The position numbers and the translations under genes are program-made. A DNA stretch of 61,315 bases, the filler included, from Hausera hauseri (Eukaryota): the NCBI GenBank assembly GCA_046269625.1. It is 10 parts of 10 records of this genome, joined end to end, with 100 filler letters (N's around TTAATTAATTAA, not from the genome) between each part and the next. Parts side by side here need not be neighbours in the genome. Positions count along the whole stretch, not along the records: positions 13,694 to 23,449 come from JBJURY010294390.1; positions 23,550 to 28,019 come from JBJURY010565005.1; positions 28,120 to 33,268 come from JBJURY010321827.1; positions 33,369 to 39,397 come from JBJURY010150533.1; positions 39,498 to 44,682 come from JBJURY010313719.1; 5 more parts are not named here. One strand, written 5' to 3'. The notes beneath the pieces are model-generated. The model saw only the letters and a program-made list of their open reading frames with translations, was not told the origin of the DNA and did no database searches. How positions within the stretch are numbered: position 1 is the stretch's first letter; every line of letters starts with the position of its first letter. Shown here one piece after another: positions 13,594 through 44,682 of the stretch.

Positions 13594-13839
13594 NNNNNNN
13601 NNNNNNNNNNNNNNNNNNNNNNNNNNNNNNNNNNNNNTTAATTAATTAANNNNNNNNNNNNNNNNNNNNNNNNNNNNNNNNNNNNNNNNNNNNTCCGACC
13701 ATTGTGCTTTAGTTTTAGGAACATAAGAGGCAATTAATGATAATGCTAAAATTATCTGTACGTAGGATATTGGCCTATTAATTATAGGAGATGTCCTTGT
13801 TTTTCTTTTGTCTTGACTTGGCTTTAAACTATGATCTTT

Positions 13840-14888
13840 AGATCGTAAGTTATAACGTTTTTCCGGTTATTTTTCTGTTTTAACAACTCTTCATATAGGT
13901 AATACCTCTTCTTTGCCATTTTTAATAATGTAGACAGTAGTTGAAGTGGTTCGAATAATTTCATAAGGTCCTCGTCCTGTACGAGCAAGTTTTAACGACG
14001 TACCTTTCCTTGCGACTGGATAGTGTACATAAACCCAATTCCCTTTCTCTAAATCGTGAGGTATGGCTTTCTTATCATATTGCTTTTTAAACTGTTCTTG
14101 ATATTCGAAAATTAGCGTCCTTGTTATATCCCAACACTTTTGTAATCTCATTTGTAAACTTCCGCGAAATTTGGTTCTAAATCTTCTGGATTTGCATGGT
14201 ACGGAGTCATTCCTAAGTCCGTAGATAATATTGCTTCGCGTCCATACATCATAAAAAACGGTGTAAATCCTGTGGCGAGATGTGGAGTAGTATTGATAGC
14301 AAATTGTGTTCCTTCTAAAAATTCGTCCCAATCCTTTTGGTCCTTTGCGACTACGGTCGACAAGACCCGTAGAACTGTTGCGTTCATAGGTTCGACCATT
14401 CCGTTGCACTGAGGGTGATATGCGATAGTGGTCAGTCGTTCGATTTCAAAGATTTTGGAAATTCTATCACTCGTAAAATTTCTTCCTCTATCGGTTAATA
14501 TTTGATCGGGGGGTCCATATCTGCAAATAACTTTTCTCACTACTGCGTCTGCTAAGGTTTCTGCCTTCTGGTCAATTAGTGCTATTAATTCAACAAAATG
14601 TGTTAGTCTATCCACGCATGTCAAAATATATTTGTTATTTTTGTGAGTCGTAGGTAGGGGTCCTACTGTATCCATAGACATAGCTTGCATAGGCTTGTAT
14701 GGTACATTGATTTGTTTTAGTTCTGCTATATAGTTTTTCACCTTTTGTTTCGTCGCGCAGACTTCACAAGCGTCGACCCAGTTTTTCACATCGATATAAA
14801 CGTTCGGCCAGTAATACTTATTCAATATTCTTTCTAGTGTTTTCTTCCATGACGTGTGTCCAGCCAAATGTGATTCATGTTCGGCCAT
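13840..14888 (-). pseudogene. Gypsy integrase
   Basis: HESHLAGH..YYWP..CEVC zinc motif, MDTVGPLP, LTDRGRNF, YHPQCNGMVE, GPYEI and terminal RYNLRS. Confidence 0.95.
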
Positions 14889-15199
14889 TAATACTTACGT
14901 TCGTAATCCCTTTGGAATGACTACTAGTTTCCGTCCCTTTCGTTCGTAATATAAAATATTGTCTTGATTCGAATCATAATATTTATGCCCGTGTCTTTGT
15001 AAATGTTTCTTTAATTGGCGTCCTTTTGGTATTTCATTTAGCTCGGCAAATTATATTATTATTTGTTGAATAACCTTATTCTTGGCTTGTTCCGAAGAAA
15101 TTTTGATTGTTTTATTCAGTGTTAAGGTACGTTGTCGTTCTAGTATTTCTTCGAGTTGAACCTTCTTCATAGTATTAGTCGTACTTAACTTCGTCTTAA

Positions 15200-16444
15200 G
15201 TCTTGATTGTGCATCTGCGTCAATACGTTTACTTCCGCGTTTGTATTGAAATTCGATATTATATCGAGAGATTTCCTCGATCCACCGATTTAGTCTACAC
15301 GTCGGGTTATTGGCCCGCCCTTTAACGTTGTAACAGCCTTGTGATCGGTAACTATAATAATTTTCTACCCGTAGACATAGACATTAAAGTGCCTTAGAGC
15401 TTCTTTTACGGCTAATGTCTCTAGTTCAGTAACTGAATAACTTTTCTCGGCTTTCTTCAGCGATCGTCCTCCATATGCAATCGGATGTTCCAATTCTTCA
15501 TCTCGTTTCTGAGCCAATTCGTAACCAATTCCATCTTTACTTGCGTCTGTTTTAATTATAAATGGTAAATTAAAATAGGGATATCTTAACACTGGTTCAC
15601 TTGTTAGAATTTTCTTCATTTCATCGAACGCTTTTTGTTCGATATCGGTCCATTTCCACTTGCGCCCTTTTTTCAATAGTCGATATAATGGTTCATTTAT
15701 TTTCGAATTGTCTGGCACATAAGTGGCATAGTACCCACATAAGCCTAACCAATGTCTTAATTCTTTCTGATTTTGGGGTTCTATACAATCCGATATTTTG
15801 CTCAGTAGAGATTTATATGGCTTCGACCCTCCTTCTCCGACTATATGTCCAAGGTAAGACACCGCATTTTGCGCCCATTTACATTTCTTAGGGTTCAGTT
15901 TCAATCCTGTCTGTTCCAAACACATAAGAGTATCTTCGATGTCCTTTAGGTGTTCTGTTTTCGATGCTATCATTACATCATCTGAATAGGCGAACGCGTG
16001 ATCGAGTCCCATTAGCATTTTATTCATCATTCTGAATATAGCTGGGCCGGTTGTTATACCGAACGGCATGACATTAAATTCGTAAACTCCGTCATGTGTT
16101 TTAAACGCCGTTTTATAACGATCATCTTCAATTTCCACTTGCCAATATCCGGATTGTAAATCCAGTGTGGTAAACCACTTTGTTCCTGATAATCTGTCTA
16201 ATGCTTCCTGTACTGATGGTAGTGAAAACGAGTCCTTCATGATAAGCGTGTTCAAGGCTCGGTAATCTATACAGAATCGATGTTTAGTGGCACTTTTTTT
16301 CTTGATCATAAGTATTGGTAAGTACCAAGACCGGTAGCTTGGTCGTATTATGTCGGCTTTCAACATACGTTCTACCTCTTTCGTTATCTCGGGCCTTAAC
16401 AAATGAGGCGGTGGGTACCATTTAGACATCTTTTGCTCTTCCAA
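15200..16444 (-). pseudogene. Gypsy reverse transcriptase and RNase H
   Basis: RFCIDYRALN, LDLQSGYWQV, MPFG, AYSDDVMI, KTDASKDGIG, YSVTELETLAV. Confidence 0.96.
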
Positions 16445-17039
16445 ACCAATTTCGTCATTGGAGCCAAGTTTCTTTTTTAATGGAATGGTTAATCTTAAGG
16501 TTTTTGCTCTACCTATATCTTCATTTTAGGCAATAATCGACTTATATTTGCATAGTAATTCGTAAAATTGGCAGTATGCTTCTGGTGAAAATTTCATTTC
16601 AACACGAGGTGGAAACTCAATAAATTTGTACGGTTTTTCTTCGATTGTTATTGCCGATATCTTACAAGTATGGCCCAACGTAGTATTGACATACAACCTT
16701 ACGGGGGTTGGTGCATTATTCACTAACCTAATCGGTACTCGTCCCGTCGTCACTCTTGTTAATACGTTAGTGAATGATATTGAGGTTAACGTCTTCTTGT
16801 GGCTCAAAGTAAACTGGTTGGTCGTCTTCCCGAATTTGAGCATAAATTAACATTTCGGTTCTGGGCGGAATATTTTCGTCGACGGGAATCCATACTTCTA
16901 GTTTCTTTTCTTTCACTGTTTTAATCCCTTTCACTGGCCCCAGTTCCAGTAGTTTCCCTGTATGTAATTTATTGCGATATTGGGTAATTGTTTCAGTATA
17001 TCGCATCCTAACACTACATCATCGGTTAGTTGATCCATT

Positions 17040-17387
17040 ATGGCAAACTGGTGTCGAAGAATTTGACCCATTCATTGAAGTAAGGGACTCCACTTAAATT
17101 TCGGTTTTGATTCCTGCCCGAAGGCTCCTATGCTACTTGGATCTGACGACGATGCTGGCTGCATTTGTTTTCGGTGTAGGCTGTATTGATTCTAACTTAA
17201 TAAACGATTTTTCCGATCCGGTGTCGATTAAGGCATAGATTTCCCAATCCTCAATGGTAACTTTTGTGAAGGGTCTCCTTTCCATAACTGTTCCATAACA
17301 ATTTGACACGTCCTTTGGTCGTTTAATTGAAGAAATCTTGTGTCCGTTTATTGTTATCTCTAGTGATGAAATGATGTTTTCGGTCAA
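17040..17387 (-). pseudogene. Retropepsin-type aspartic protease
   Basis: IYALIDTGSEKSFI. Confidence 0.9.
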
Positions 17388-17899: not shown

Positions 17900-19710
17900 C
17901 GTCATTTCTCCACCGATTTTCTTCGTACGCTTTGAGCATTTTGCCGAACGGTGATAACTGCGGTTAAAATCTTGCAGGAAAATCCTGTTAACGTGAATAT
18001 TTCGTATCCATTTATAACCGCCTGAATTACTGCCTTTATTAACTGTATCAAGAAATAAATTACTAAAAATCCGGATGCGGCTTATCCAAAAATTAAAAAT
18101 CTTCCCCATATTTTGTAGAGTATTTCTGTGGTCACCCTTTGGTAATGATTCACACCGAGTAAAGATTCCCATTTAGCCTGATATCGGGTATCATCTACCA
18201 CTGATGCCATGGCTAGGTTTAATTCGTGTGTCCGCTGCCGTGGAAAAGCGAGAAATTGTCGAAAAGCTTCGATCTCTTGGTCTGTAAATGCCCTTTTGTA
18301 ACGTATCTTGGAACTTGTCATCGGTAATCTCTAGCTAAATTAGTTCGCTAAATTAGAACCGTAGTGACACCTCCGTTAGGTAAACTAACCCAATCCGTTT
18401 CGCTACGTCTAAACATTGGTTCTCCCAAACTTGCTGTGTTGTCCAGCAACACCCTAGTAAGGGGCATGGCTAAGCGTGGAGTGTTCCGATAAATCACAGG
18501 GAGCTCTTGTATACATCATTTTTCTTCGACATTAATTGGTACGTCTCTTTTCTCACACTCATGTCAGTAGAACTTCGCCAGTAACTCGACCAAAGATTCC
18601 TTTCCTCATGGGAATAATTGGTGAGGCTAGCTCAGGGTTTATTAAATAAGAGCTATTTTTGTCCTCATAATTTCCGTATCTAATTTGCAATCATTAGTTA
18701 TCATTTTATAGTACAGTTCAGCTATGCCGACTTGTCCTTTATAATAAAAATAATCGTCCCGGTTTTTCAGATAATCCTCAATTCGAATGTCCTGCGTTTC
18801 TAAGTTATGTTTTCGCGTTTATCTCCGTTTCTGCGACGAAAAATGCTTCGTAGTTAGAGGTGAACATTACTACTTCATAATGTGAAATCATTTCTTTTTT
18901 ATGAATTTCAGTTCATGTTGATCAGAGATTAGTATCGTAGGTGTATGATGTTCTGATACGTCTTCGCGTGCTCTTGAACTGACATCGGATTTGTCTATGT
19001 ATCTATTCCCGGTGGTTTCATTAAATTTCAGTTCCTTAATCCTAATAAAATTACAGCCTTTTCCGGAGGGCGGTTCCCATATTACGACAGAACTTCTAAA
19101 GGGACAGGTTCCGTCCTGTATGTGGCATTTCTGGTTCTCGGTGTATAGCTTAGTGACAATATGGAACATCACTTTCTGAACTCGCATTTCTAATTCGTAA
19201 AAGTCTACTACTACGTTTGTTTCCAACCCTTTTCCAGTGTCGTATTCCGTTCCACTACACTGCCCATTATGCATATCTAGTCTTCCGACTACAATCTTAT
19301 ATGCTCTAATTATTTTTCCGGGCTGCATCTCTAGTTCCATATCCCATTTTAGTCTTCCGGTTTCTCGAGCCTGTTTGCAGTGTTGTCTCTCCAAATTCAT
19401 TGGAATTGGAGGGGTCGTCGGTTTGATTATCGAGGAATGTCCATGCATTAATCCACAATGGAAAATGCTACGAGATCTTCTCAGCATACACTCCATGCCG
19501 TCCAAAGATATCAACTCTTGTTGTTAGTACAGGAAGTAACTCTTCTCCTTTGTTTCCAATGTATATGGTCTGGCATCTTCACATGCTTCTAAGTCGATTA
19601 GTGAATATTTTTGTCCAAGCTTGAATCTATCAGTCATAGACAGTAACAACACCCGTCTGTTTTATTAACATCATTATGGTGAATAACCTGATTAACCAAT
19701 TAGATTCATT
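17900..19710 (-). pseudogene. Env-like glycoprotein related to chuvirus-type glycoproteins, disrupted
   Basis: Signal peptide WLIRLFTIMMLIKQTGVVTVYD, then GQKYSLIDLEAC, ECMLRRSRSIFHCGLMHGHSS, CKQARETG, GQCSGTEY, CHIQDGTC..VIWE, FTDQEIEAFRQFLAFP and a C-terminal TM (FG*AASGFLVIYFLIQLIKAVIQAVINGYEIF). Confidence 0.8.
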
Positions 19711-20411
19711 CTTTCGGTTATTATCCGTCATTGTCACGTTCGGCAAGATGTCTTCGAGCCTATTGTTACTATTGGTCCTTTTTCTTCCTTATCATATAAT
19801 CTTGGACAATTTACTTCGCAAGGGAGCTTTCTAGCCTCTTTCCGTACCAAACTTGTAGCTCGGTTAAATTCACTTTCTCTATTTGGGTTTGTCTTGATTG
19901 CCAAGTACAATAATACTTTCCTTAGCTCTTCTGTCGTATTCTCCACCATAATTTTCTCAACTACTGCGTAGTCAGTTAAGGTATTCTTAGATAACTTGAA
20001 ACGTTAACTTCTCATAATCCTAGCTGAATTAATTATTGCTTCTTCTTTATCATCTAATGCATCTCCTCGAAGGCTTGAATAATTTACAATACGTATTAAA
20101 TTCCTCATTAGTTCATTTAATTCTTCATTATCAGTACTGAAAGTGGGAATTGACATTTGTCTCAATTCTATAATCAATTCTCCGTTATAGTCCGCTTCTT
20201 CTCGGGCTTTTCTAGGCTTACCGACTGGGCGTTTTGGTCTTGGGGCATTAGTCATTATTCCACTCAATGACACTAAATTCTTATCGTATTGTTCCTTGTC
20301 TTCATCCATTTGTAAATACTCGAAATTCATCACAGCACCTCTTACTCCTGTGATTTGTCATACGCATTGCTCCGTCTTAGCCTTACGCGTGGCTTCTTTT
20401 GTCTGCTCATT

Positions 20412-20630
20412 ATCTACTACTACAACTATTCGATTTGTTTCACCGGGAATAATTCTGACGTCTATTAACTGTTCTAGATCGTCGAGTATTCTTCCTCTAA
20501 AGTAAAATCTGTAATTTAGCTCATCTGTTCCGCCATTCTTTAATAACCATTCTCTTATGTCCTTTACATAAGTGTAGTTAACTCACATTCCTTCTCTTCC
20601 ATCCAGTCGGATGATATCATCACTTTCATC
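20412..20630 (-). pseudogene. Ubiquitin-like domain within the element polyprotein
   Basis: Manual translation: MKVMISSDWM...TYVKDIREWLLKNGGTDELNYRFYFRGRILDDLEQLIDVRIIPGETNRIVVVV (one frameshift). This fits the ubiquitin RLIFxGKxLxD pattern. Confidence 0.75.
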
Positions 20631-22118
20631 GTTGCCTCAGGTTTAGCCCTCAAGATGTTCGCATACTTCTTTATCAAAAGTTTCGGCACCACGCTGTAAA
20701 TTTTATTCTCACTAGATAATTTAGTCAAAGTCGGAATAAGTCTAAGCTTATTTTCAGAAATGTTTACGTTAATTAGTTCAGTTAATTCCTCTTCAGTTGG
20801 CACTGAGTCCAGCAGCACATCCACGTTAAATTTCCTGTTCTGCAAATACATTTCTATTTCATTCAGCTGTACCAGAGTTAACGGATTTTCGGCCGTTATT
20901 GTTTCTAAATAAGCATCCCATTCGGGTTCATTTCAAATATCTGGGAGTCCATAGTCTACTAAAGCTGTGTTCTTTCTTTGCACATTTTCTCGAATTTCTT
21001 TCAATTTTGGTTGTATTTCTTTCATCTGTGTAGTCCGGAAACCTATTCCGTTTCCACAGTCATATTGAATCAGTTTCAGTAGTTCGCCTAATTCATTAGA
21101 ATTGATGAATCCCTTCAGGTGATAATCGGTTAGTTCAATAATTACGTCTCTTTGCCATAGCTGCACAAATTCTCGCTTATTTTTGATTTCTGATTCCGTA
21201 AAAGCATATTTATTTCGGTAGTTTTCAAACTCTTACTAGTTCATCTAACGTCGTTGCTCTTTGTTTCGTTCAGATGCACGTTTCTTCAACTTGTTGTAAT
21301 TTGGGCATCAATTGTCTCATCTTCTCATCGTTAATCTCCGCCATTTCTACCAATAAGTAGGCTACATCTCATTTATAATTTTTGAGTCGGGGTCCATTGC
21401 ATCCAGCAATTTCTTAACGAACTTAGATTCTTCGAAACTAAGACGTTGGTCGTTTCGTATTTTCGTCAATTCGGTATGACAATTCTGATCTGTACCGGCC
21501 ATCCATTCTTGTGGTTTGTGCAAGAATCTTACTGCTTCTGCTAGAGCTGCTCTATGTTCTGGACAAATATCTAGGATTTCGATATCCTGGATTGAAATCT
21601 CGTCGATAGGTTTATCCGTTAAATGTTGGATTCCGGTTGTCTTAATTCGATTGCTTCATCGAGCTTTCCTTCGCTGCATAATTTTAAGCTTTTATATAGT
21701 TTCTCTGCAAATTGTTGCTCTTTACCAGATATATCTGTTTGTTTACTGATGTTTAAGTTTTTCTAAATTGTGTCGGAGTATTTCTGGATCGTGATATCTA
21801 ATTCTCATTCTCTTTAGTTCGTCGGCCTTCTTCCATGAACGTCAAACTTTCCATTTTCTCTCATCAAAATCATTACTATCTTCCGTTTCTTCCTTAATGG
21901 CGGGAAGCGGACAAATTTCATTGATTTCGTCATTAATGTTTCGTCATCACTTTCAATTTCATCTGTCGTTTTGTCTGGGTTATACTTTTCGGCCTCTGCG
22001 TCTAAATCTACATTCTGAGATACCGTTGGTTTCTCTGAATGGGCTATTCCTTACGGAATAGACTTCTTGTGCGCCATAATTTATTATTTGGTGCGAGTGC
22101 ATATTCTTCGGTTTGCGG

Positions 22119-23449
22119 TTATCTTAGTCCTTGATAGACTTCCATTAGTCGTAATTTCTCTTCATATTCTTTTCTAGCTTTTATGACTTGAGGATTAGTA
22201 GTTTCACCTAGATTCCTTACAGACCTAGGCAGGCCTTGCATTTCAATAATCATGCATATATCACCTCGTTTACCATAGATAGCTTCTAAGTTATTTTTAA
22301 TAATACTTCTTTTGTTCGGTTCATTAAATGCGACACTTCTGGGATTTGGACATGACCTAGCAATATGCCCTTCTTTACCACATGTAAAGCAAATTAAATT
22401 CCAATTTCGACCAATCCGTTGTCTGCCATCTTCATTCACAGGTGATTTTGATCTGTTTATATTCTTATTTTGATTATGTGGTATTTGTCTGTTATCTCCG
22501 TCATACTTGTTTTCATTACTACGATTATCCGTGTATTTATTATTTAGTCGGTAACTACATTGGTTCCTATCGGGATTATAGCCCGGTTTACTATATGAGT
22601 TGAATGTATTCCGATTATTACTAAAATTTCTATTGTCTCTTTGATTCCTGTTCCTATTATCAAAACCTCGGTTTCGGGTATTATCATTAAATCGTCTGTT
22701 GTCTTGGTTCTCGTTTCTATTCCGATTATTACGGTCTGTTCCTTTCGTATTTGTCACCTTGTTTGGCATCTCTCCAATGCCATCACTAGGTCCTGAGCTA
22801 ATTGTAGCGTTTTCTCAAAATTGTCGGGTCTGGCCAAAATTAACTGTTTAACTAGATCTCTTGACCATATTCCACTTATTAACTGAGTTGTCATCATGAC
22901 GTATAAATCTGGCGGGGTCGCCTTTTCCGTAGCATCGCGTTCTGCGTCTGTTTTAGCTTTTGCTACGTTAGCTATTCTCAAGGTACTTACATAGCTATTA
23001 GCGAGTTTCTTCAATGCAAATGCAAACTGGGTTACCAATTCACCCTTCTGTTGCACTCTGTTTTGAAATGCCATAAGTTTCTGTTGTGGCGTTACTGTTG
23101 GCAATAATTTACGGTTCAATGCTCCTACCAAGTAGGACCAAGATTTCTTCTCATCATTAGTGAGCTCGTTATAAGCATCAGCGGCTAAATTCTTTAAATA
23201 TAATGATAAACGTTTTATCGTTACTTCAGGAGTGAGACTAGCACCTTCTGCGTGCAATTTATAAGTTCTCAAAAAGTCGTTTAGTCCATCTGGGTCACCA
23301 TCGTATGCCGGCAGATTCAAGGAATAAAATGTAAAGATGTCAAGCTTCTGTGCTACGGCTGGATTATATGCAGCCGTGTTTGCTTCATTCTTATAAGGTT
23401 TATTGTTTAGCTGAGGAAGTTTAAACTTACCGTTTTGTTCGACGTTAGT
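22119..23449 (-). pseudogene. Gag (capsid-like domain, Asn/Arg-rich linker, CCHC zinc knuckle), frameshifted near 22760
   Basis: LPAYDGDP..FL..Y, YLKNLAADAY, RVQQKGELVTQF..ALKKLA, CFTCGKEGHIARSC. Confidence 0.92.
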
Positions 23450-26170: not shown

Positions 26171-26479
26171 GAGTTTACAGATTTTTATCTTTTGGGACAA
26201 CTAATTGTTTATCTGGATGTCGACAATCGATTGTCAAGAATACTCATAATATATGAGGACGAAGAAGAATGGCCAGACGAATGGAGTAATCCCCGACTAT
26301 TTATGATTACTGACTCATAAGCTAATGTACATAAATTATTATCGTATATGAAGTGTTAATAAAATTAATGAATTAATTTCATTTCGGAAAGGGATTAATA
26401 TCAATTCTATTAAGATTCCCCTTGTCTACTGTGCAGAAAGCACATTTTATGTTATGGATTCCAAGTCCCATGTTTTCAC

Positions 26480-29340: not shown

Positions 29341-29349
29341 AGGCCTTGA

Positions 29350-31800: not shown

Positions 31801-33420
31801 GATGGTTGTATCAAAAATTAATAACTTCCTAGATTTTATACGAATGATCTCTTCAGCAAATAGCATTCGTACTCTTGTCCAACCTTGCAACCAATGCAAA
31901 TGATATTTCATAGTGATAGATGTCCTTAATAAAACTTATAAATAATTTAACCTTGCTGTTAATCATTTATAAATAAATACCTTCATGTCTTTGAAGAAGT
32001 ATGGGAAATATTGCGAGTAGTAAGATGGTCATAAATTTGATAAGATGCTTTTATTCACGACCCACCTAGATCTCAACATTGTGGTGTTTCATTGAATGCA
32101 ATTAGATATTTTGTCCTTGAGGACAGCGCATTTGGGAGCGTGAGTTTGTCCGTGGACGGATTCGGATTTCTCATTGACACTTCAATGATTTTTTTCTGTT
32201 GAACTTCTACTGTAATTCTTATATGGTTGTACTTGTTATGATAAACTATTACATCGTTCGAGCGTAAATGATCTATAATATTCACATATTTTATATTGGC
32301 TATGTGCTTTTTGGCTAAATGTTCGACAATTTTCATAACAGTAAATGGATGTTTTACCATAGTCTGTTGAAATTTTAATTTAATACTTTCTTAATCTTGA
32401 AAATTTTATTGGCATGTTCAATAGCTTTTGTACAGTCATTTTATCCGACTTGGTTGTTTTATTTTATTTGGTTGTAAAAAAACAATTGTTTAAATTTGGT
32501 GATGTAAAGAAAACACGGTACCACACAAAAACAGAGTTATTGATTTGATTGATACAATAAACCTGGTTTTACGGTTGTTCTGAATTTCAACAGTTAAAAA
32601 TGGTATCGATAATATGGGGTTTGCTGCAGAAGAAACGCGGATATTTACTAGTGGCATCGGATATCTTGGTCTATACAGATCAAGTCAGACGCCCACAAAC
32701 GTTGGTTTCCTGTTCAGCTAATATTTTCCCTTACATTTTTAAAGTAGAGAATGCCAAGGTGAACCAACACTGGTGTCAGAAGTTTTCACTGGAATATAAC
32801 CTTTCTATTGTGGAGCCTAATGACTATCGATGTATCCCAGACTCGCCTATCCAAAGCTGCGGCCGAGGTTTACATTTATTTCGATTTTATTTACACAATA
32901 AAATTCTCAGTGGTGATCGTCATGCATTTATGTCACAACTTTCTAACCCATTTTTTAGTCTTAAACTTTTTATGTATGCAAATTATCTTTATGCTCGGGT
33001 ACTGCATCGATTGGGGGAAATCGGATTTGTTTGTGGCCGACCCTTGTGCTCCTCGATGCGTTGTCCTTGGGAATGGGGTGTCAACACTACCCAGAAATGT
33101 TAATGCACATTATTTCACTAATGATAATTTGCACTTTATCATATTTTCTTATGAAAACGATAGTACTATATGTACTATATATAGCTATATAAATTATGGA
33201 TCATGCGTACTAAACTTTGATCCTGAAATTAAACATGCATACTTTTCCAATATATTTTACATTCTAATNNNNNNNNNNNNNNNNNNNNNNNNNNNNNNNN
33301 NNNNNNNNNNNNTTAATTAATTAANNNNNNNNNNNNNNNNNNNNNNNNNNNNNNNNNNNNNNNNNNNNAATAATGGTAATAAATTACTTCATGGTACAAA
33401 GAGGAAGAAGAAGGTTTTAT

Positions 33421-34656
33421 TTATACAATGACGGTTCCGTTTTTCATTATTTCAACTTCGGCATCAAACACACCGTAAATGTACATCACGGTAGATTGCT
33501 CCAACGCTTTAGCAAAGTGAACTTCCAATCGTAGGTTTCCCTGCTGATGTAGTTGAGTATGTTCAACGTCATAATCCGCAGCCAGGACAAAGGTGAAGAA
33601 TGGATAGATGGATTTGAACAAATCCATCGATATGCCATTGTTGATGCTTTTGTTGAACAAACCCATGTTGCGCACGACAGATTGCATATATGTGCAAACA
33701 TAATCATCCGTCTCAAAATCTTGCTTATATGTCTCAACGAAATCGGCATTCTTATCCAAACTGATGTAATTCAGATTGGTATGAGTAAACGTTTCCGAAT
33801 CGGTGGTATAACTGCCCATTTGTTAAGCAGTCGTTTGAAATGTAACAAGCGCAAATTTCCGCAATTGCATGTCACCAAACAGTGCATCTTTGTAAAACGT
33901 AGTTGAACCTTTGGGTATGGTGTAAAAGACGAGTTCTGTGCGTTGCAGTGGGTAAGAGGCATTTTGCGTTTCCAAGCCCAATCAATGTCCTATGATCACA
34001 GGTGGTTCTACCTTTACACGACGTACATATAATCGAGCCTCGGTGATTTTCAATTTGGATTTGAGATTTTCAACTAAAGTTTCCAAACAAAAGACATCGT
34101 CGTTTCGTTTCAGCCGAATCATGGCTTTAACACCGGGCAGTAGGTATTTCGGCTGATCAAAAAAGTCAAAGTACAGCGGTCCACACCTTGTAAGCGCTTT
34201 TGATTCTGTCATCCATGCCTGACGGTTTGCTGCAGGGGCGTCATATCCGATGGTTTTTGTCAAATGAGTCGTTTTCATGTCTGTACTGTAATTCAGAGTC
34301 GTTTCAATGAGTGCTTTGATACTGTATAGACTGGTGCTGCCTTCAATTTCGACGCTGTTTAGAGTCAGTGAAGCCTCCTGGAACAGTTTAAGGAAAAAGT
34401 AATTGGCCGGTGTGACAGTGTCTGTTGCATCGAGAACCGTTGATGCGTCCTTTTTAACAATGACTTTGACATAGAGTAGCGTATCGCTCAAATTCAGATA
34501 TTCATTGTCCGATGCCATAATGTTGAATTGAATGTCAATGTTATCGTCCATTGAAACCAAATCAACGGGATAGATTTCTTCAAATGCCGCATTGTCAATA
34601 ACACCTTGTGGCGCGGCTTTGTCAAATATACGCAATTCAGATTTTGCAGATGTCAT
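33421..34656 (-). pseudogene. Polinton major capsid protein (double jelly-roll type), frameshifted and partly deleted
   Basis: KSELRIFDKAAPQ..IDN..FEEIYP, YLNLSDTLLYVK, DFFDQPKYLLPGV..IRLKR, ARLYVRRVKV, GNLRLEVHFAKAL. Confidence 0.9.
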
Positions 34657-34663
34657 TTGTCTA

Positions 34664-35020
34664 TCAATCGAAAATCGTACGTCGACGATGCTTCTTTATA
34701 GTTGATGAGCTTGTTGATGCTCTAAGACCTTTACTCAAGCCACTGCCAGTGAACTGTTTTTTAACTGATTCAATGACTCCCGGTGTAACCCTTTTTATTT
34801 CCGACAAGGCGTGTTCCTTCAGTGATGGTAAAATTGATTTGTTTTCATATAGTACATCCTGTGCTGTTTTTGCTGACACGGCTTCAATACGTTTCAACAC
34901 CGGAAATGCTAAGCGTGGCAATGTACGCAACCATCCAAAACCATACTGCTTATCAACGAAATATGGCAGTTCACTGCCCTGCTGAGATTTACTGTAAATG
35001 GAAACGATTTAAAAATCAAA
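34664..35020 (-). pseudogene. Polinton small core-like protein
   Basis: QQGSELPYFVDKQYGFGWLRTLPRLAFPVLK..TGSG plus a basic tail ending TIFD. Lies between the minor and major capsid genes. Confidence 0.6.
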
Positions 35021-35029
35021 TATGTTGTT

Positions 35030-36089
35030 GGATTCGACGGAAATGAAAAGTTAGAGTAGTTGTGGTACCTTACGGAAATTCAATAAAGTAGCCCGCGTCA
35101 CATCGGATATTGCTTCAATATTGTTTATGGATGTAAATGCCACAAGTAGGTACATTGGAATATCGAGCTTGACAGTGACATTGTTGCCAGCAGTATACTT
35201 GCTGCTTTCCGAATAAATTGCACGGAGTATCAGTACACGTACTCTACCGACCAAAATCGGTTCGGTGACGTTCATGTAAATGTACATTTGACTTAGTCCA
35301 GTTTTCAGTTTGGGTTTAAGTGTTTCAACATATGCTGCCGCCGTCTTCATATCCGATGCCTCAAACCGCTGTTTTCAAAACCCAATACCATGGCCAAAGC
35401 TTTTTTCAATGAAATGTCATAATATTCTTAGAGAGTTCAAATTTAATGTACCCACTTGTATCTGGCTCAAAAACTTTAAATATCGCCTTGTACTTTTGAT
35501 TTGAAAAGTGTTGACAGAGCTGTGTTACAGATTCGCAATATTGTCTCCAATCGATACGTACGACGTTGACACCCTTTCTGTTGTCTAAGTAAATTTCACC
35601 GTTGTCTGGTAATATACGAGACTTAATCTTGGACAAACTACATGTTCACTTATAATATGTTTATCTTTGTACTCTATATTTTTGAATCCAAATTTCTGCG
35701 CCATCTCAAAGGACTCAAAGGTAACAGTAAATTCAAAATCTGCCATGAAATGTAAATTTTAATCTAAAATAAAAACACCGATTTTGCCGTGTGAACCGTA
35801 ATTTGCTTCGGTTGTGCAAATGGTCGATTCTCCAACTGTTATTTTATTGTTATTAAGTGTCAGAGGACAAGAATGTTTTTTGGTTTCAGTAACAGTCTTG
35901 TTGTATGTTATTTTCATACTACCTTTCAATGTCACCGGTGCGTAGGGAAAGTTAAATACCGTCAGTGCAACTTCCCATTTTCCAGATAAATCCAAAGGAT
36001 TGTTCCAATCTACAACCTATTCAATGGTAGAATTGTTCGGACGAGTAGTGGGACAACTGTTGCTCGGCAACACCATGTAAATACTCATT
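35030..36089 (-). pseudogene. Polinton minor capsid (penton-like) protein, copy 2
   Basis: MSIYMVLPSNSCPTTRPNNST..WNNPLDLSGKWEVALT; C-terminal QMYIYMNVTEPILVG..ILR..PMYL..INNIE. Confidence 0.8.
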
Positions 36090-36139
36090 ATCTCGATGAT
36101 GATGATAACGGTGATGATGACGCAGTTTGTTTATTATCG

Positions 36140-37195
36140 ACATTGACGACGTCGAATATGTAACATCAAATGTGTCGTTGAACCAAACAGAAATTTAACG
36201 GGTTCCAAAAATTCATCAAGTATATACACGGGAATACTGTGCACAATATTGTGAGACAATAATAAGTACATTGGTCTGAGCATATTAGCGCGAACAGTTT
36301 CACCCCATGTTTGTACGTGTCAGAATCTAGTTTGATAGAAGCCAGTAGTTGTTTACGTTCTCCATCAACGAGTATAGATTCGGTTAAGTCCGTTAAAATG
36401 TTGATTCTATGATGTGCTCCATAGAGTTTTGGTTTGTATTTGGCAACAATAGATTGTCCAACAATGATTTGATAGAATTCGCGTTTTGAAAAACCCAGAT
36501 TCCGAGCCAATAGTTCATCAAGACAAAATATGTTACACTGTCGTAGTGTAAGCGAAATATGACCATCTACGTTTATTTCACATGTCTTTACGACTAATCT
36601 AGCCATTTTCTTGACGTATTCACGCAATTCCAGTCCCATTTCCATTAATAAATCGTGTAGTATAATATATGAGTGGAATACTGATTCTGACTTAGTCCAC
36701 TTTACTATAATATTGGATTCCGCATTGGATGAAAGGTCCAATTTTTCACCAGTTATAACATGTTCTCCTAGCCGTAGACGTTTTGAGTGTACATTTGCTG
36801 ATTGAAAACCCCATGCCTGAGCATCAGCTATAGATTTACACTGCGTTTCAATGGATTTCGATACATTAGCTTCATACGGTAGTTTGAAAAATAAGCATAA
36901 ACCGAGAAATGTTGTCGCGAATAATTGCAAAGAATATATCGGTTATTGTGTCGGATTGTACGCAAACAACTTTAAATAGGGTATGTTTCTTGTCGGGTAA
37001 AGTAAATATCACTGTTCTGACGTATTGTTATTGGTGATAATGTAAATGTGAATTCCGCCAAATCCAATTCCCAGTCTCCGTGGCGTAAATCGACCGGTTG
37101 GTCCAAGTGTATGGTAAACTGTTTACCGGTATTGTCATTGTCGTCATGTTGTGATAATAATCTGTTACTATCAAGTACCAAGTAAATGCTGCTGC
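36140..37195 (-). pseudogene. Polinton minor capsid (penton-like) protein, copy 1
   Basis: IYLVLDSN..DNTGKQFTIHLDQPVDLRHGDWELDLAEF; LARNLGF; INILTDLTESILVDG..QLLASI. Confidence 0.75.
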
Positions 37196-37339
37196 TTCTG
37201 CTAATTAAATCTGCGATACAAAAATACAACTCGGTGCAATGTATTCGTTCCACTTGACGAGATATTGTTTATTCAAATCTTTGCCATGTTAACGTAGAAT
37301 TTCCTGAATACGATATACATCAGGTTCCTCGGCAGTGCC

Positions 37340-38229
37340 TGCAGATTCTGTTAGTTGAATTTACCGCGTATTTCCTCACCGTTTTCATCTTCCAAAACGT
37401 ACATGATAGGTGTTTGTTTTGTGTTGATTGTCGAAATGCGGAAAACTTCGTAGCTCCAGTTCTGATTGAAATTCTTAATGAATAGCGTCGTACTTATTTT
37501 TAAAATACGTACATAATCACCGATTTTATATTTTGGGCCTTTAATTGCCTGTCATTGTGTTCAGTTTTGATAAAGCCACATGCCCAAATCATCGATTACG
37601 TCAACCGGGCGCATTCCGTTGATTCCGCGATGTGTCGAATGATTGAATGAATTAATAATATCCGGCAGTGCATCTACCCAGCGTTTGTTGCCTTGCTTCG
37701 AAAATAATTTGTTCAGGCGACCGCGCAATGTTCGATTACATCGTTCAACGAGTGCAGCCTTGTATTGGGAAAACACCGAGTAGTGGTATACGCAGAACAG
37801 TTTCAAAATCGCTGCAACGTGGACGTTGTAGAATTCCTTATCCAAATTCGTTTGTAAATACTTCGGCTGTCATTGTTGTACCTGTGTCTGAACAGCGTCG
37901 GCAATCTCTTTACTAGATTTGGATTTCACGGAAATTGCACGTGCAAAACGACTAAACACATCAATACATGTCATCACGTACCGATACCCATCGTAGATGC
38001 TGGCGTACGGAATAATTTCCATAAGATCCATCTGCCATACTTTACTTACACCGGCAGCACAGTATGCACGAGTTGGAAATCGCCTTCTTATCGGTTTGTT
38101 TAGGCTGTATGTTAACTGTTTCCCGAGCCAATGTTGGGTATGTTGCCAAGTCTGTTTGACAGTCTTTGTCAGTTTGTCGACGCCAGTATACCCGACGGGA
38201 TGACGCGGGTCGAACCACACGTCGCCCAT
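37340..38229 (-). pseudogene. Polinton retroviral-like integrase
   Basis: FDPRHPVGYTGVDKL, WQMDLME, TCIDVFSRFA, DKEFYN, KAALVERCNRTLR, WVDALPDII, NWSYEVF. Confidence 0.93.
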
Positions 38230-38372
38230 CTTTGGTGTCGATGGTGCCAGTTTTCCTTCATTACAACAATTTGAACAAAACCTAAATGAAAGATTTGGTA
38301 AACTAAGGCAAAATGATAAAAACCATGCACAAATATCGCCGAATCACCATATACTTACCGTCATTGTTTATA

Positions 38373-38700
38373 CTATGATGCTGCTCTAGAATGAATGTGT
38401 CTACCAAGTAATGACGTGACAATCGGTAGAATTGCATCAAGGAATCCCCGATCTTGCTGGTACATGACTTCTCGTTTCAGTCGTTTACTACGGTCGTTGG
38501 CATGGCCAATGAGTCGTTTTCGATACTTTAGTAAATTCCGCTTTCCACTACCAATGTCAACGTGACCCACAACGATATTGTATTAAATTTCCATCAAATC
38601 ATTTACTACAAATTGCGGGAACGATCGTAGCATGTTTCGCTTATTTCTCGTAGGTACCTTGAGCAAAGCAATAAAGTACAGCTGACTACGTTTGAATCGC
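38373..38700 (-). pseudogene. Polinton conserved small basic ORF
   Basis: LLKYRKRLI..QQDRGFLDAILPIVTSLL, located between ATPase and integrase. Confidence 0.55.
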
Positions 38701-38827
38701 ATTTTTGGACGTATTAATGTTTGGTAGGTTTACGTTTAACAATTGCTTTTAGGAAATTCTTCATTTTATCACTATCGTGTCGTCATCGATTTTTGAATTT
38801 ATTTATTGACACATACACCTTTCTGAT

Positions 38828-39393
38828 TGAAAATGTCTGTTCGGACATGCATGTCATCGGGACACTGTTGTGTAAAGTCGATGAACAAGTATCCGTGTGG
38901 CCCGGTCGTAACATCATGATATGCATCTATCTATGAAATAGGCTTGGTTGTGAGGTAGTGCTTGTCGTGCAACGTAATCAATGATAGTCTGATCACAGGG
39001 ATTTTTGAACAACACCAAATAGTATACGTTTAGGTTTCTTGTTCGATGCTGTCCACCCTGATGGAACATGTTCTGCGTAATGAAAATAACCGTCAAACTA
39101 CGGTGTCGTGCAATCTTCGTAAACAAGTTGCTGAAATCAAATTGTTTCGTTGCCTCTTAAAATAAATCATCAATGAAAATAACATCACCGTTGCGTAATC
39201 GTCTGGACCAATACTCATCAAACCAATCAATTACCATTATCAATTTCAATTGACAAAATTTCCTATGTGTCAAGCCGGACTCACCATCATCACCAACACC
39301 CTGATGCAAATAAATGTGATTGTACCGCGGTGAATGGAACATGTCACGGTAATTCTGCAATAGTTTACACAATGTGTGTTTTGCCACTTCCAC
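38828..39393 (-). pseudogene. Polinton A32-like packaging ATPase, 5' truncated
   Basis: Walker B VIFIDDL, FTKIARHRSLTVIFITQNMF and YLVLFKNPCD. Confidence 0.88.
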
Positions 39394-39669
39394 TGGGNNN
39401 NNNNNNNNNNNNNNNNNNNNNNNNNNNNNNNNNNNNNNNNNTTAATTAATTAANNNNNNNNNNNNNNNNNNNNNNNNNNNNNNNNNNNNNNNNNNNNAGA
39501 ACTAATAATAACAGGTGTTTGTGTCCCTGTAGTCTCCTTGATATTTGTGCTAATAATGATAAAAATAATTGGTTCCATACGACGACGTCGCAGACAATCA
39601 TGGGTAAGAATAGACTTGCGACGTATACCGAATACCTTGGAGATCGATAATCCAAGCTGACGGTGGATA

Positions 39670-41067
39670 ATGAGGATTGTAATCAACGCAATCCACTTAA
39701 GACAGATAGCTGAACGTCATATAGCTACCCTTTTAGTATTTAAAAGTAAAATTACAATGATTACCGAATATAAATTGATAACCATTGTATTATTGTTAAG
39801 ACTCTTAAATATGCTATTGACTAATGTCGTTACAGATATGATGGAAATCCAATCAGTACAAAGGAGCAAAAATTGGTATGAAAATGCCAAGACACACCTC
39901 ATCAATGCCAACTCCACCAATCCTTATCACGTAATCCTCAATGAAACAACGTATAGTCTCAATTACCCAAAATTACAACAAATCCCCAACAATCTCAAGG
40001 GATATACATGCCACAATCGTTCACTTGCTTTGATACAGATGACGAAGGCTACCTCGTTCTTCATATCGGACATCATCACCATGCCAGAAAAGTATTTCTC
40101 CATTACTATATTTGATATTACCGGAAAGTTCCAAATCAAAACAAAAAACATTAAAACATCCCAACAAGGAGATCTAATTAATCTGGATCCCAATCATGGC
40201 ATAGCTATTGATATCAAATTTATTACAAAGAATACGTTGAAGATCCGGTCTTTAACCAACCGAATAATGTTCGGTATCGAAATTCTCCGAAACGAGCCCT
40301 TTTGGACAACGCCTGAGCCCGGTAAATGTTTCAACCTAATAGAGCCGGACTACATCAAATATACTGAAACTTCTTATCGACGCGTAGCGGAAGTAAACAA
40401 CGATGAGATAGTCATAGTAGCAGTAAACTTGGCCTATGACCAAGAGAATCAGTTAACTCCATTGGAATGTTCAGTTCTGGACATATACGGCAACTCACTA
40501 TTCTACACCATTATAACCCCACGAAGGAGAATCAATAATTATGATACTCACATCACCGGCCTAACCGAATCTCAAACTACTAACCAAATGGACGAGAACA
40601 TCTTCTATCAGAAAATATCGATGCTTCTTAATGATAAAATGATAGTTGGGGCCGCAGTATTGGAAATGCTTACAAAGTATCTTAAATGTCCCCTACGTCG
40701 GATCCTAGGTATTCGTGATATTTTATATCACGACGAAGTGGTCCAGAAATATAAAATGGACCGACCCAATTACAAGGAATTGGCTAAACGGTTCTATAAT
40801 ATGAGAGCCATGCCATTACGGAGCACCGCATTGGCACAATGTTATCAGGCCATTTACCGCACACTACGATTTGATGATGAGATCATTACCGACGCTACGG
40901 CTCCCGACAGGGTCCTAAAAAGACCACCCGAGGTGTCATCACGTAAAAGAAAAATTGAAATAGAAGAAGAGGTTCTAATCGACGGAGAAGTATATACCCC
41001 AGATGGCCTACGATACAAATCCCAGTCCGGCAAAACAATATTCCGTGCGTTGCCAGCCCACTTATGA
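39670..41067 (+). CDS. Protein with a C-terminal DEDDh (ISG20/REX4-like) exonuclease fold, probably inactive
   Basis: CSVLDIYGNSLFYTIITPRRRINNYDTHITGLT..KISMLLNDKMIVG..IRDI follows the REX4/ISG20 pattern. The ExoI DxE position reads AVN. Confidence 0.7.
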   Translation: MRIVINAIHLRQIAERHIATLLVFKSKITMITEYKLITIVLLLRLLNMLLTNVVTDMMEIQSVQRSKNWYENAKTHLINANSTNPYHVILNETTYSLNYPKLQQIPNNLKGYTCHNRSLALIQMTKATSFFISDIITMPEKYFSITIFDITGKFQIKTKNIKTSQQGDLINLDPNHGIAIDIKFITKNTLKIRSLTNRIMFGIEILRNEPFWTTPEPGKCFNLIEPDYIKYTETSYRRVAEVNNDEIVIVAVNLAYDQENQLTPLECSVLDIYGNSLFYTIITPRRRINNYDTHITGLTESQTTNQMDENIFYQKISMLLNDKMIVGAAVLEMLTKYLKCPLRRILGIRDILYHDEVVQKYKMDRPNYKELAKRFYNMRAMPLRSTALAQCYQAIYRTLRFDDEIITDATAPDRVLKRPPEVSSRKRKIEIEEEVLIDGEVYTPDGLRYKSQSGKTIFRALPAHL

Positions 41068-41099
41068 AAAGTTCGGGACAACTTTCTTCAGCCCCCCTC

Positions 41100-41871
41100 G
41101 TATCTGATGAACCGACAAATTGACCACTATTACAATATTCGACATCCGTTCGCAAATTATGTGACTAACATTAAATAATGTCAACTTACGTTAAACAATC
41201 TTAGACCGACTCTTTTGATCAAAGTTTTATTGACCTTACCACATTAATGTAGTTCTTTTGATTTCACGGTGATCTTTATAATGCAATAATCATTTATTTG
41301 ACCCGTTTGTATAAATTATATTGCGTATGTTTATTTTATCAACGTTACATGTCAATTATGTGATTTTGAAACTTACTATAAATACGGTAATAATTTTGAT
41401 CATGAACACAACAAGACATTTGACGTAACCTATGCTTAGTTGCTTATGTTTCATCTGACGTGAGTATTGTTCTTTGATATTTCATTATTTGAATTATTTG
41501 CATTTGGTTTTATTTTTATAAATTGAATATACTTTTATAATTCGTATTGTGTGTTCGATTGAAAGTAATCAAAAGTAAATCAGTAAAAAGCTAAGTAATC
41601 TGGATTATCGCCGTCTAGGTCCAACCTACCTAACGGCATCCTGTTTAACGATAATTAAACCAGTGTCAAGTAATACAGTAGAATAAAGTAGCCGCCCCAC
41701 AGGCAGACCGCCCCTTTTACACATTACCGATAGGATAAAGTTAGGTAAGGTGCCCATATAAGAATAACTCTATCACGCCCAGCCATTGTATACGAACTTG
41801 TTCACCCTCTTAATTCTGCAGAAAGTTATAAATAAAGACTCTCCCATAATCGAATTAGCGGGGACTGAACA
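41100..41871 (+). repeat. LTR (3' part) of family B copy 2
   Basis: Non-coding stretch with a TATA-like TATAAATA near 41378 and AATAAA at 41831, ending in CA at 41871 just before a PBS. The 5' boundary is not determined. Confidence 0.6.
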
Positions 41872-41873
41872 AC

Positions 41874-41891
41874 TGGTGCCGTGACCCGGGA
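41874..41891 (+). promoter_or_regulatory. Primer-binding site (tRNA-His)
   Basis: TGGTGCCGTGACCCGGGA matches the complement of the tRNA-His 3' end (TGGTGCCGTGAC...). It lies 2 nt after the LTR end and about 90 nt before gag. Confidence 0.88.
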
Positions 41892-41980
41892 ATTTATCAA
41901 TAAAGTAATTAGCATTCAAGATTACGACCAGGAAAGGGACACCTTACAAGGTAGGAATAGAAGATAACCCACCATTTGGA

Positions 41981-44682
41981 TTGGAATTCATAAACCACCT
42001 GAGTGAAGAAGAAGAAGATAGAATGGCTAGAAATGACCATGTAGTAGAGCAGGTGATACAGTCAAAAGCTGACTTCACCTTGCCAATGAAGAAGTTTTCA
42101 GGAAAGGAGGACGTGCAAGATTTTATTATGGAGTACGAGGTCTATTCAAAAAGTTTCGGATGGACGGACCAGCAGCGAATGGAAAGATTACCTCTCCATT
42201 TAAGAGGAACAGCCTTAACCATTTACTTTCAGATGCCTGAAGACGATAAAAAAGATTGGAAAACCGTCAAAGAAAGATTGCCACAGAAGTTTTTAGTTGA
42301 TCCTTCCGGAAAAGGGAGGATAGAGGAATTTATACGAAGAAGGCAACGAAAAGACGAGACGGTTCAAGATTATGTATGCGCACTGGAGAAATTGGCAGCT
42401 AGGGCATATCCTGATGCAACAATAAGAAATAACGCGTTGTTGGCCCAATTCCAATATGGACTTGAAGGAAAGTTAAGGACGATAATATTACAAGCCGATC
42501 CTCCCACGTTTCAAGATGCCATAAGGAAAGCACGTAAGGCAGAACGAGACGAAGAACTGTATAAGTGGACTAAGCCAAAGAGATACAACGGATACGACGA
42601 TAAACGAAAGAATAATAGTACCCAAAAGTACGAAAGGTATAATAGGAATAGAAGTCCCTCACAAACTTCAGCCACGGAAGCCGAATCTGACGTTGAGAAG
42701 AAAGTGAGGTTTAAATTAAAAAACGATGGAGAAAAATCCAATTACAAGAAGAAAAGCTCAAAGGACGGAAGAGCCTTACCAAATATAGACTCCGAAGGAA
42801 GGCTAAAATGTTTCAATTGTAACAAGTATGGCCACATAGCGAAGGCATGTCGATCACGAAAAAGGGATTCTTCAAAGCCCTATAAACAAAAGAAAAAGGA
42901 ATATACGTCAGCCACATCGGACGAATCATCCGACCAAGAACACGAAGAGGACGAAAGTAGCAATGAGCAAGAAAGAAAGAACAAAAAGAAAGAAGGCGTA
43001 AATTATATTAACGACATACTATCCAAACGTATGAGAACCCAATTGGATATGGAATTAAGAGATTACAAAACCCAACAAAAAAGATTGAAAGAAAATAGTA
43101 TCTATGTACTAGAGGATAAACCTAAAGATAAACAACCCCGAAAAGGAAGAAAGAAAAGTAATAAGGAAATAACAGAGGCGGAGGCTGGATCAAGAGAAAC
43201 ATCAACGGAAAGGGAAGAGGTAGTGAAAGAAAGGAAAAGAGGAGGAAAGAAGGGCAATCTCAGTACACCTTCACCCTCATTTAGCCCCGAAGAAACTCAA
43301 GCTTCACCCTCATTTAGTCCAGAAGAAACTCAAGCCACGCCCATCTTTGATGATACCATATTGAACCAAGTAATAAGGAATCCAGAAGTAGATTTAGATG
43401 CGGAAGATGACCTTATTCAAGCAGTAGTGGCGATAGATCCTGAAAATATCATTAATGTAAATGAAGCAACAAGTACAATATTAAAGTTAATAGACAATAA
43501 AGTATCTCTGAATAAGATAAACGAAATATTATTTCAGTTATTGATGCTGGCCCACGATACGAGCCCAATAAGAGATATTGTACGGACAATACTAGCCAAA
43601 GCAGCTGAAGAAGAGAAAGGAAGAAACGAAGTAATAAGGATAACGTTAAAAGAAGGAAATCAGGATGTAAGAATTATAAGAATGAATGAAACAGACGACG
43701 TATTAGCACTACGCGATAAGATTGGAGAATTAGAACCATTCTACAAAGAAAAGATGTATGGACTAAGCTTTTATGGCAGAACTTTATACAGTTATGATAG
43801 CTTGTTACGAGTAGGATGCAGAAGTGAAAACTATAACCCAATCACGATAACAGACATTCATCCGGGGGCAAGAGCAGAAGAGACGATAGAAAATATAATA
43901 AGAGAAGTAGAACCTAGAGAAGTTGAGGAACAACCATTAGGTGACGCACACGATGTCATAGTGCAAACAGACGCTCGAAGAAGGGGAAGACCGAAAGGAA
44001 CAAAAATAAGTGACATCCGAAATAAAAAGGATCGAAATGAAGAAATAGTACGACGTCTGTTGTTAGCAGGTACAGATACAACACCGGAATCAGTAGACAT
44101 AGATCCATTATTAAGAACGTTGTTAGCTAGATTACATACGTCGTTCGCATCGTTCGATATGCAGACGGTAATTCCTGATGACTTATTCCAGACGCTACGT
44201 AACAGTATGTTAAAAATCAGTAGACAGTTTTATGAAAATATTGGTGAAGAAAGGATCAATGAACTGCATGAGCAGGATATACTAGAAAAGATGTTTGCAA
44301 CAGGAATTACACGAGAAAAAGTACGGACGGCTATTGCTTACTTACTATATAAAATAATCGTAATAAACCACCAAACTCAAAATTTAGAGGAAATTGAAAG
44401 AAATATTAAAGCAGCAATAAAGGTCTTAAAAGATACACTAGAAAATTGGGTACAGTGTAGAGGTGGTTGGTTGGCAAGTCTCACGAAAAATGTAAGAATG
44501 GAAGAAGGACAAACCGGGTTACCAACGCCATCAAACATACATACAACTCGACAAGGCATAACGGGAATGACGATGATGGAGATCCTTCAGTTAATTCTAA
44601 TAACTTCGTTGATAATGCCAAAGGCCATGGGCCTGGTAGCATACGATTGTGCAAATCCCAAGGAAGGACAGAAATATTCGTT
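41981..44682 (+). CDS. Open Gag-accessory-Env polyprotein N-terminus of Gypsy family B copy 2 (truncated by the contig end)
   Basis: About 900 uninterrupted codons: Gag (KFSGKEDVQDF, LHLRGTAL, RRQRKDETVQDY), CFNCNKYGHIAKAC, Ubl (about 43628-43855), RRRGRPKG, Bcl-2-like region ending LENWVQCRGGW, then signal peptide and AYDCANPKEGQKYS. Confidence 0.92.
43269..43334 (+). repeat. 33-bp in-frame tandem duplication (SPSFSPEETQA x2)
   Basis: CTTCACCCTCATTTAGCCCCGAAGAAACTCAAG followed by CTTCACCCTCATTTAGTCCAGAAGAAACTCAAG. Confidence 0.95.

Follow-up and report, generated by a model that had tools for sequence, protein, structure and literature searches.

What does a retrotransposon carry between its Gag and its envelope protein (Env), and is the arrangement new? 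The question is raised by the window analysed here, a stretch of 61,315 nucleotides from Hausera hauseri (GCA_046269625.1), in which an earlier note proposed two diverged members of one Gypsy lineage with a ubiquitin-like (Ubl) domain, an AT-hook-like motif and a Bcl-2-like domain placed before Env. Ten unrelated contigs make up the window, with N44-TTAATTAATTAA-N44 linkers between them, and because the linkage is artificial, the two contigs concerned, contig A (13694-23449, minus strand) and contig B (39498-44682, plus strand), are not one locus; blastn finds no DNA similarity between them, and the whole window holds no tRNA gene. We conclude that A and B are probably fragments of two multi-copy Ty3/Gypsy families in which env separates gag from pol. 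They are likely related, in compact form, to the planarian Burro elements and come from a host that is probably a flatworm; the most fitting name for them is compact Burro-like Gag-Env-Pol errantiviruses. The domain order, the single open frame from Gag to the start of Env, the primer site and the many copies can be read directly from the data.

Contig B is open in one frame between 41909 and its last base at 44682, giving 924 codons, or 886 from the first ATG at 42023, in agreement with the roughly 900 codons claimed by the earlier note; the probability of such a frame by chance is ~4e-30. It encodes, in order, Gag, a CCHC zinc knuckle, a spacer, a helical domain, the Ubl, an AT-hook-like motif, a weak Bcl-2-like domain, a signal sequence and the start of Env (Table 1). 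The tRNA-His primer binding site (PBS) claimed for this copy was borne out by a full match, the 3′ bases of tRNA-His(GUG) being those tabulated in the supplement of PMC13524379, and contig B has a Ty3-type capsid and CCHC knuckle with a tRNA primer site before gag. As the contig stops 14 residues into Env, Env-Pol is not visible on it. The limits of the long terminal repeat (LTR) are not definable in contig B, where a second copy is absent, the polypurine tract is not clear and no repeat pair was found.

A phmmer search with the Ubl-to-Env part against 1.84 billion representative sequences returned three matches (P0002, P0003 and P0004). P0002, with 1,130 residues, repeats the contig B order and continues in frame into Env (Monjiviricetes_fusion, E 6e-19), matching the contig B open reading frame (ORF) at 47% over Gag and at 33% (E 2e-82) over the CCHC-to-Env part; P0003 and P0004 are fragments holding Bcl-2 and then the start of Env. 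Among longer proteins, a word-based search with the Ubl-to-Env part found none of 2,659 candidates, and a search with the Env of P0002 found two of 2,169, P0125 and P0126. These are single frames of ~3,770 residues, arranged Gag-helical-Ubl-like-Env-Pol without Bcl-2, in which Env is followed by two proteases, reverse transcriptase (RT), RNase H (RH), integrase (IN), a third protease and a type I membrane protein. Gag, Env and Pol thus stand in one frame in both; contig B is cut and contig A broken. Their three retropepsins lie two before RT and one after integrase, and the two proteins belong to clusters of 7 and 21 members. No related locus was confirmed among the viral contigs or metagenome contigs searched.

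Contig A has the order Gag-CCHC-helical-Ubl-Env-PR-RT-RH-IN (PR, protease), with an Env of class III (Monjiviricetes/gB-type), in a decayed state with many stops and frame changes, 22 of the stops falling within six aligned stretches. It supplies the Ty3/Gypsy Pol order that the stretch of contig B lacks, and its Env, which lies between gag and pol as it does in P0125 and P0126, is matched in tblastn by P0002 (E 8e-26) and P0125 (E 4e-57). The description as a retrovirus-like element with a fusogen holds, on Pfam evidence, for a Ty3/Gypsy element whose Gag and Pol are separated by a class III Env. The claim of one domain order in both contigs stands for Gag, CCHC, spacer, Ubl and Env, but the Bcl-2-like domain is confined to contig B. 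Since the Bcl-2 position of contig A carries no Bcl-2 signal, the full architecture holds for contig B only, and Ubl and Bcl-2 do share the contig B frame but are not jointly a property of both members. Both halves of the proposed glycoprotein start of contig A, VYD and GQKYS, are present but lie in different frames. An AT-hook-like motif was likewise claimed for both; contig B has RRRGRPKG, but contig A has GKP in place of GRP, and no Pfam scan returned AT_hook for either contig. In the contig A spacer (20816-22343, minus strand) there are helical-looking segments that contig B does not have, possibly extra cargo domains. We infer that the signal-peptide-like run after integrase is the start of a second membrane protein.

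Both contigs clearly belong to repeat families, and their summed depth is not a copy number. Contig B was found in four public runs, all of which cover contigs A and B in the same depth order, and in all four, thousands of contigs align to A and B at 80-99% identity. In run X1, 6,801 contigs align to B and 31,397 to A, most of them less than 95% alike. Depth in X1 climbs from ~110 to 4,700 near 41574; copies differ in the region preceding the PBS, with a depth of ~110 over 41228-41573 and of thousands from 41574 on, and some X1 contigs skip 41055-41610, 41239-41607 or 41755-41852. The interiors of the LTR or the untranslated region seem to vary between copies. For contig B, the 40 best-supported differences were listed, a selected subset beside which 1,405 more lie outside the list; 31 of the 40 fall inside the ORF, counted from the first ATG, and of these 31, 26 are synonymous, against 27% expected. 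This points to purifying selection on the contig B frame, the Ubl and Bcl-2 region included.

Such abundance of diverged copies raises the question of whether the contigs are mosaics of repeat copies with an artefactual domain order. No single aligned run contig spans contig A or B, the low similarity of most of them fits a mosaic, and on contig B the assembly may have collapsed at identical LTRs, so bringing an exonuclease-like ORF next to the LTR and gag. However, P0002, P0125 and P0126, which come from other assemblies, keep the order in single frames, and among the 15 members listed for the P0126 cluster, 12 share the length of 3,771 residues. We therefore regard a mosaic origin as highly improbable.

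If A and B are Burro-like elements, the next question is which cargo they have in common. The helical domain and the Ubl before Env are constant in all five sequences covering the region (A, B, P0002, P0125 and P0126), and a profile built from contig B and P0002 alone finds the helical domain in P0125 and P0126 (E 2e-7 and 7e-7). The domain is predicted to be helical, with a predicted local distance difference test (pLDDT) score of ~80; it gave generic bundle matches only, with Z up to 8 from a poor model, and matches to the Ubl took up the PDB lists of both sequence and fold, no search with the helical domain alone having been made. Resemblances to MIF4G or to the TFIIS N-terminal domain were considered, Pfam giving scattered weak matches only (PAH, Med15, MA3). 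The Ubl is firmer: the contig B model (pLDDT 72) contains the beta-grasp fold, with a fold match at Z 10.7 and a root-mean-square deviation of 2.1 over 76 residues, and Foldseek matches it to ISG15 (E 8e-4). An Atlas search with residues 560-870 reached 0.77 at best and led to ubiquitin clusters only. The RGRP motif occurs in two of the five sequences, as does Bcl-2. These comparisons show that helical domain and Ubl are the constant cargo before Env and that Bcl-2 and the AT-hook are optional.

For the Bcl-2-like domain of contig B, Pfam Bcl-2 gives E 0.004 in the scan of the contig and E 2.6e-4 on the domain alone, both below the cut-off, and E 8e-5 to 0.055 in all four relatives that have the region. 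A profile of the four sequences, searched against the PDB, retrieved Bcl-2 family members in all 60 of the matches listed (best E 0.005), with Bcl-xL, A1 and Bcl-w as the best, and the BH2 tryptophan and GG are invariant in all four. Even with a poor structural model, 16 of 47 Foldseek rows, and every row with a probability of at least 0.2, are of the Bcl-2 family. The domain is thus likely of Bcl-2 type, as a weak assignment from sequence. In contig A neither Pfam nor the profile of the four relatives gives a Bcl-2 match, and the profile finds nothing in P0125 or P0126; Bcl-2 is an optional accessory module, absent from some members.

Several findings weigh against the reading of A and B as Burro relatives with such a cargo. 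No sequence examined carries Bcl-2, Env and Pol together in one frame. The BIR, ankyrin, MATH and dUTPase domains of Burro (PMC6431247) have no Pfam match in contigs A and B or in P0125 and P0126, the dUTPase scan being made with Pfam on two stretches of the broken PR-RT region and on P0125/P0126, where PMC6431247 used HHpred. Every Bcl-2 score lies below the Pfam cut-off, and the NWGR of BH1 is replaced in all four sequences. The model of the Bcl-2 region is poor (pLDDT 45), without a Foldseek match at E 0.001, and in a fold search with it Bcl-xL comes only at rank 25 (Z 6.6). Finally, in a tree of 123 sequences, which included no Burro RT, the RT of contig A does not group with those of P0125 and P0126.

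It could be argued from this tree that A and B are separate Gypsy lineages sharing an exchangeable helical-Ubl-Env cassette, with no lineage of fixed architecture. The RT-RH part of contig A is 44% identical to P0125/P0126, which rank only 48 and 50 among its matches; Gag-Env-Pol elements are not monophyletic according to PMC13524379; and Bcl-2 and AT-hook vary between members. However, Gag, helical domain, Ubl and Env are homologous and colinear across five sequences, and the RT of contig A is decayed and long-branched in a poorly resolved tree, with no RT on contig B to compare. We consider separate lineages rather unlikely, and retain the reading of both contigs as compact Burro relatives.

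Poxviral proteins with a Bcl-2 fold block innate signalling, and it is conceivable that the domain of contig B acts in this style, or only holds Gag and Env together close to the membrane in a matrix-like way, without binding BH3 proteins. The replacement of the BH1 motif fits such a role, as do the lack of the domain in P0125/P0126 and the failure to detect it in contig A. Against it stand the invariant BH2 residues and the nature of the best PDB matches, and also the fact that Burro has BIR domains as well (PMC6431247). We consider a role apart from BH3 binding somewhat unlikely.

Table 1. Positions in the window of the features found on contigs B and A
Feature	Contig	Position	Strand	Basis or remark
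End of an upstream frame, hydrophobic helix then basic run, type I membrane anchor-like	B	39498..39600	+	sequence
468-codon ORF, C-terminal ISG20/RNase T-like (DEDDh) exonuclease fold	B	39661..41067	+	PDB phmmer, ISG20, E 0.0085
AT-rich non-coding stretch, 3′ part a putative LTR end	B	41068..41873	+	lies before PBS
tRNA-His(GUG) primer binding site	B	41874..41885	+	12/12 match to the last 12 bases of the tRNA
First ATG and Gag capsid domain	B	42023..42538	+	Pfam Ty3_capsid E 6.8e-6 (below Pfam cut-off); Arc2 capsid 6taq E 9e-8
CCHC zinc knuckle	B	42806..42853	+	Pfam zf-CCHC
Charged low-complexity spacer	B	42854..43369	+	33-bp tandem duplication at 43269-43335
Conserved helical domain, ~80 residues, no family assigned	B	43394..43615	+	common to P0002, P0125, P0126 and contig A
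Internal ubiquitin-fold domain, without C-terminal Gly-Gly	B	43628..43867	+	profile matches ubiquilin-3 (E 8e-4) and RAD23
AT-hook-like basic motif RRRGRPKG	B	43976..43999	+	kept in P0002
Bcl-2-like helical domain (likely; weak assignment)	B	44036..44488	+	BH2-type WxxxxGGW kept; BH1 NWGR not kept
Hydrophobic stretch resembling an internal signal, then the first 14 Env residues	B	44570..44682	+	Env cut by contig end
Gag capsid region, 5′ end missing	A	22763..23449	-	tblastn P0001 E 3e-11, P0002 E 4e-15
CCHC zinc knuckle after Asn/Arg-rich stretch	A	22344..22391	-	Pfam zf-CCHC E 1e-5
Broken spacer, ~500 codons	A	20816..22343	-	two sub-stretches scanned, no meaningful Pfam match
Conserved helical domain	A	20617..20815	-	profile E 2e-4 to 1e-3 (10-sequence search)
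Ubiquitin-like domain	A	20420..20575	-	Pfam ubiquitin E 0.019; profile E 0.03
Basic Pro-rich motif, GKP, non-canonical AT-hook	A	20208..20243	-	sequence
Helical-looking stretch at Bcl-2 position	A	19761..20180	-	no Bcl-2 signal
Broken class III (gB/Monjiviricetes-type) Env behind a signal-like stretch, ending in a hydrophobic anchor	A	17950..19713	-	Pfam Monjiviricetes_fusion E 6e-17
Retropepsin N-terminal half with DTG	A	17169..17282	-	Pfam RVP E 0.003
Reverse transcriptase and RNase H	A	15320..16306	-	Pfam E 2e-28 and 2e-31
Integrase (H2C2, core, C-terminal part)	A	13810..14918	-	Pfam E 1e-16 and 1e-11; tblastn
Signal-peptide-like run, in frame after integrase	A	13694..13770	-	sequence; cut by contig end

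Beside the LTR of contig B lies the 468-codon ORF listed in Table 1. All three of its PDB phmmer matches are exonucleases (ISG20, PolC exonuclease and ISG20L2), and 29 of its 30 Atlas matches are RNase_T clusters (best 0.91); Pfam found no match in it, the N-terminal 170 residues included. The PDB alignment shows Ala in place of the His of the VGH motif; it leaves motifs I and III outside, and the other acidic residues presumably are missing as well. On account of these replacements the product is likely a catalytically dead nuclease. We infer that the ORF is the 3′ end of a like element, which tandem insertion or a collapse in assembly has linked to gag by way of the LTR. A few X1 contigs connect the end of the ORF with the LTR region, the shorter sides spanning less than 30 bases, and P0125/P0126 and contig A point to a second membrane protein behind integrase. 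P0125 and P0126 end, after integrase, in an anchor comparable to the one at 39498..39600, to which it may correspond.

We propose that a single RNA from the LTR would give a single polyprotein, whose Gag-to-Bcl-2 part would remain cytosolic and whose internal signal sequence would thread Env into the endoplasmic reticulum (ER) and be cleaved off just ahead of the AYDC-type start. The anchor of Env would bring the chain back to the cytosol for PR-RT-RH-IN, and the protease would free the parts. The signal sequence belongs to Env, since members without Bcl-2 also have it. Because the Ubl lacks Gly-Gly, it may be a docking or turnover module of the Rad23/BAG6 type and not a conjugated modifier. 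The Bcl-2-like domain would keep the cut signal helix, ~35 residues after BH2, as an ER tail anchor and, so anchored, would weaken signals for death or stress in the cell that produces the element.

Other parts of the window hold different elements. Three decayed Gypsy pol regions of another family, without Env, lie in 1-5139, 5240-13593 and 28120-33268 and are mutually related at 64-69% DNA identity; at 6192-10021 (plus strand), with decayed Gypsy pol downstream, a run of four ORFs, each 159-417 codons long, encodes hydrophobic segments and matches nothing well in Pfam. An 864-codon frame at 46835-49429 (plus strand), with N-terminal Cys/His clusters and a DUF1280 match (E 2e-12), is what we take to be a RAG1/Chapaev-type transposase, and 33369-39397 and 50479-56705 presumably carry, to judge from their translations, Polinton/adintovirus-like genes (capsid-like, integrase, protein-primed polymerase). 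The contig at 56806-61315 has higher GC, an exact terminal repeat of 77 bp and a protist-like 1,178-codon membrane protein with cyclase-like and kinase-like parts, which suggests a mixed sample.

The compact forms reveal which cargo is constant (helical domain and Ubl) and which optional (Bcl-2 and AT-hook). They also supply small domains suited to testing the interference with apoptosis and ubiquitination that has been proposed for Burro (PMC6431247), and a host other than a dugesiid would give the Ubl-Bcl-2-Env layout a wider range. It would be tempting to see Burro as the giant end of a modular, single-ORF, enveloped family extending beyond dugesiids, built on a helical-Ubl core ahead of Env, some members having a non-canonical Bcl-2 with the Env signal sequence for its ER tail anchor, and a dead 3′ ISG20-like exonuclease that shields the RNA of the element against decay or silencing by the host, but we hold this doubtful.

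How do these elements compare with known systems? Mosquito BEL/Pao elements reportedly carry a chuvirus glycoprotein, as Dezordi is said to have described in 2020; by that description their Env is of the same family (Pfam Monjiviricetes_fusion), on a BEL/Pao backbone as opposed to the Ty3/Gypsy Gag-Pol found here. The Juno and Vesta LTR elements of bdelloid rotifers (PMC5408684) likewise have an accessory exonuclease ORF of the DEDD family (there ORF3), but theirs is DEDDy with intact catalytic residues, whereas ours is ISG20/RNase T-like and apparently inactive. In the literature searched, with Repbase, subscription papers, figures and bioRxiv supplements out of reach, we met no account of the helical domain that precedes the Ubl, of Bcl-2 as optional cargo, of the AT-hook-like motif or of the ISG20/RNase T-like ORF, likely dead, beside the LTR.

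Closer are the Gag-Env-Pol elements with gB-type Env that a 2026 eLife paper (PMC13524379) reports from nematodes, bryozoans and flatworms. It lists Smed_errantivirus_1-6, with Env of class C1a; their regions, flanks included, measure 14.5-18 kb, and compact forms were thus already known. Our elements share with these six the Gag-Env-Pol order and a class III Env after a signal sequence, and by eye, without alignment, the Env of P0002/P0126 resembles the six Schmidtea rows of the supplement and is unlike the bryozoan, nematode, tardigrade and branchiopod rows (47 of 229 rows compared). This likeness suggests a flatworm as the host. Contig B has a tRNA-His PBS; PMC13524379 gives no PBS for the six Schmidtea elements, and the words Burro, Bcl, apoptosis and ubiquitin do not appear in its main text. 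The whole word "Burro" was not found in PMC8532177 either.

The closest likeness is to Burro/GYPSM1 of dugesiid planarians, with Gag, CCHC, Ubl, BCL-2-like domain, Env and high copy number (PMC6431247). The earlier note had rightly named Burro as a precedent with a BCL-like domain (section 7 of PMC6431247), but its claim of a new combination and order falls: Arkhipova 2019 (PMC6431247) already places Gag, CCHC, cargo, Ubi2/SUMO-like, BCL-2, Env and protease in one Burro ORF1, with an Env that matches mononegavirus fusion proteins, and prior annotation in Burro was what the note had named as removing novelty. In Burro one ORF extends through PR-RT-RH-IN (PMC6431247); P0002 has a single frame from Gag to Env, and Ubl and then the BCL-2-like domain stand directly before Env in contig B and P0002, with Bcl-2 undetected in contig A and P0125/P0126. 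Size differs, Env starting at about residue 870 from the first ATG in contig B (the pre-Env part of contig A has ~1,250 codons) against Burro ORFs of 4,873-5,140 residues, and there is one CCHC here against two or three in Burro (PMC6431247). The Smc cargo of Burro has no Pfam match in contigs A and B, and the helical domain, the AT-hook-like motif and the exonuclease-like ORF are not mentioned for Burro in the accessible text of PMC6431247. Because they show neither its giant size nor its cargo, the elements are Burro-like and not Burro proper, and since the headline architecture is already published, they add members to it, not a concept.

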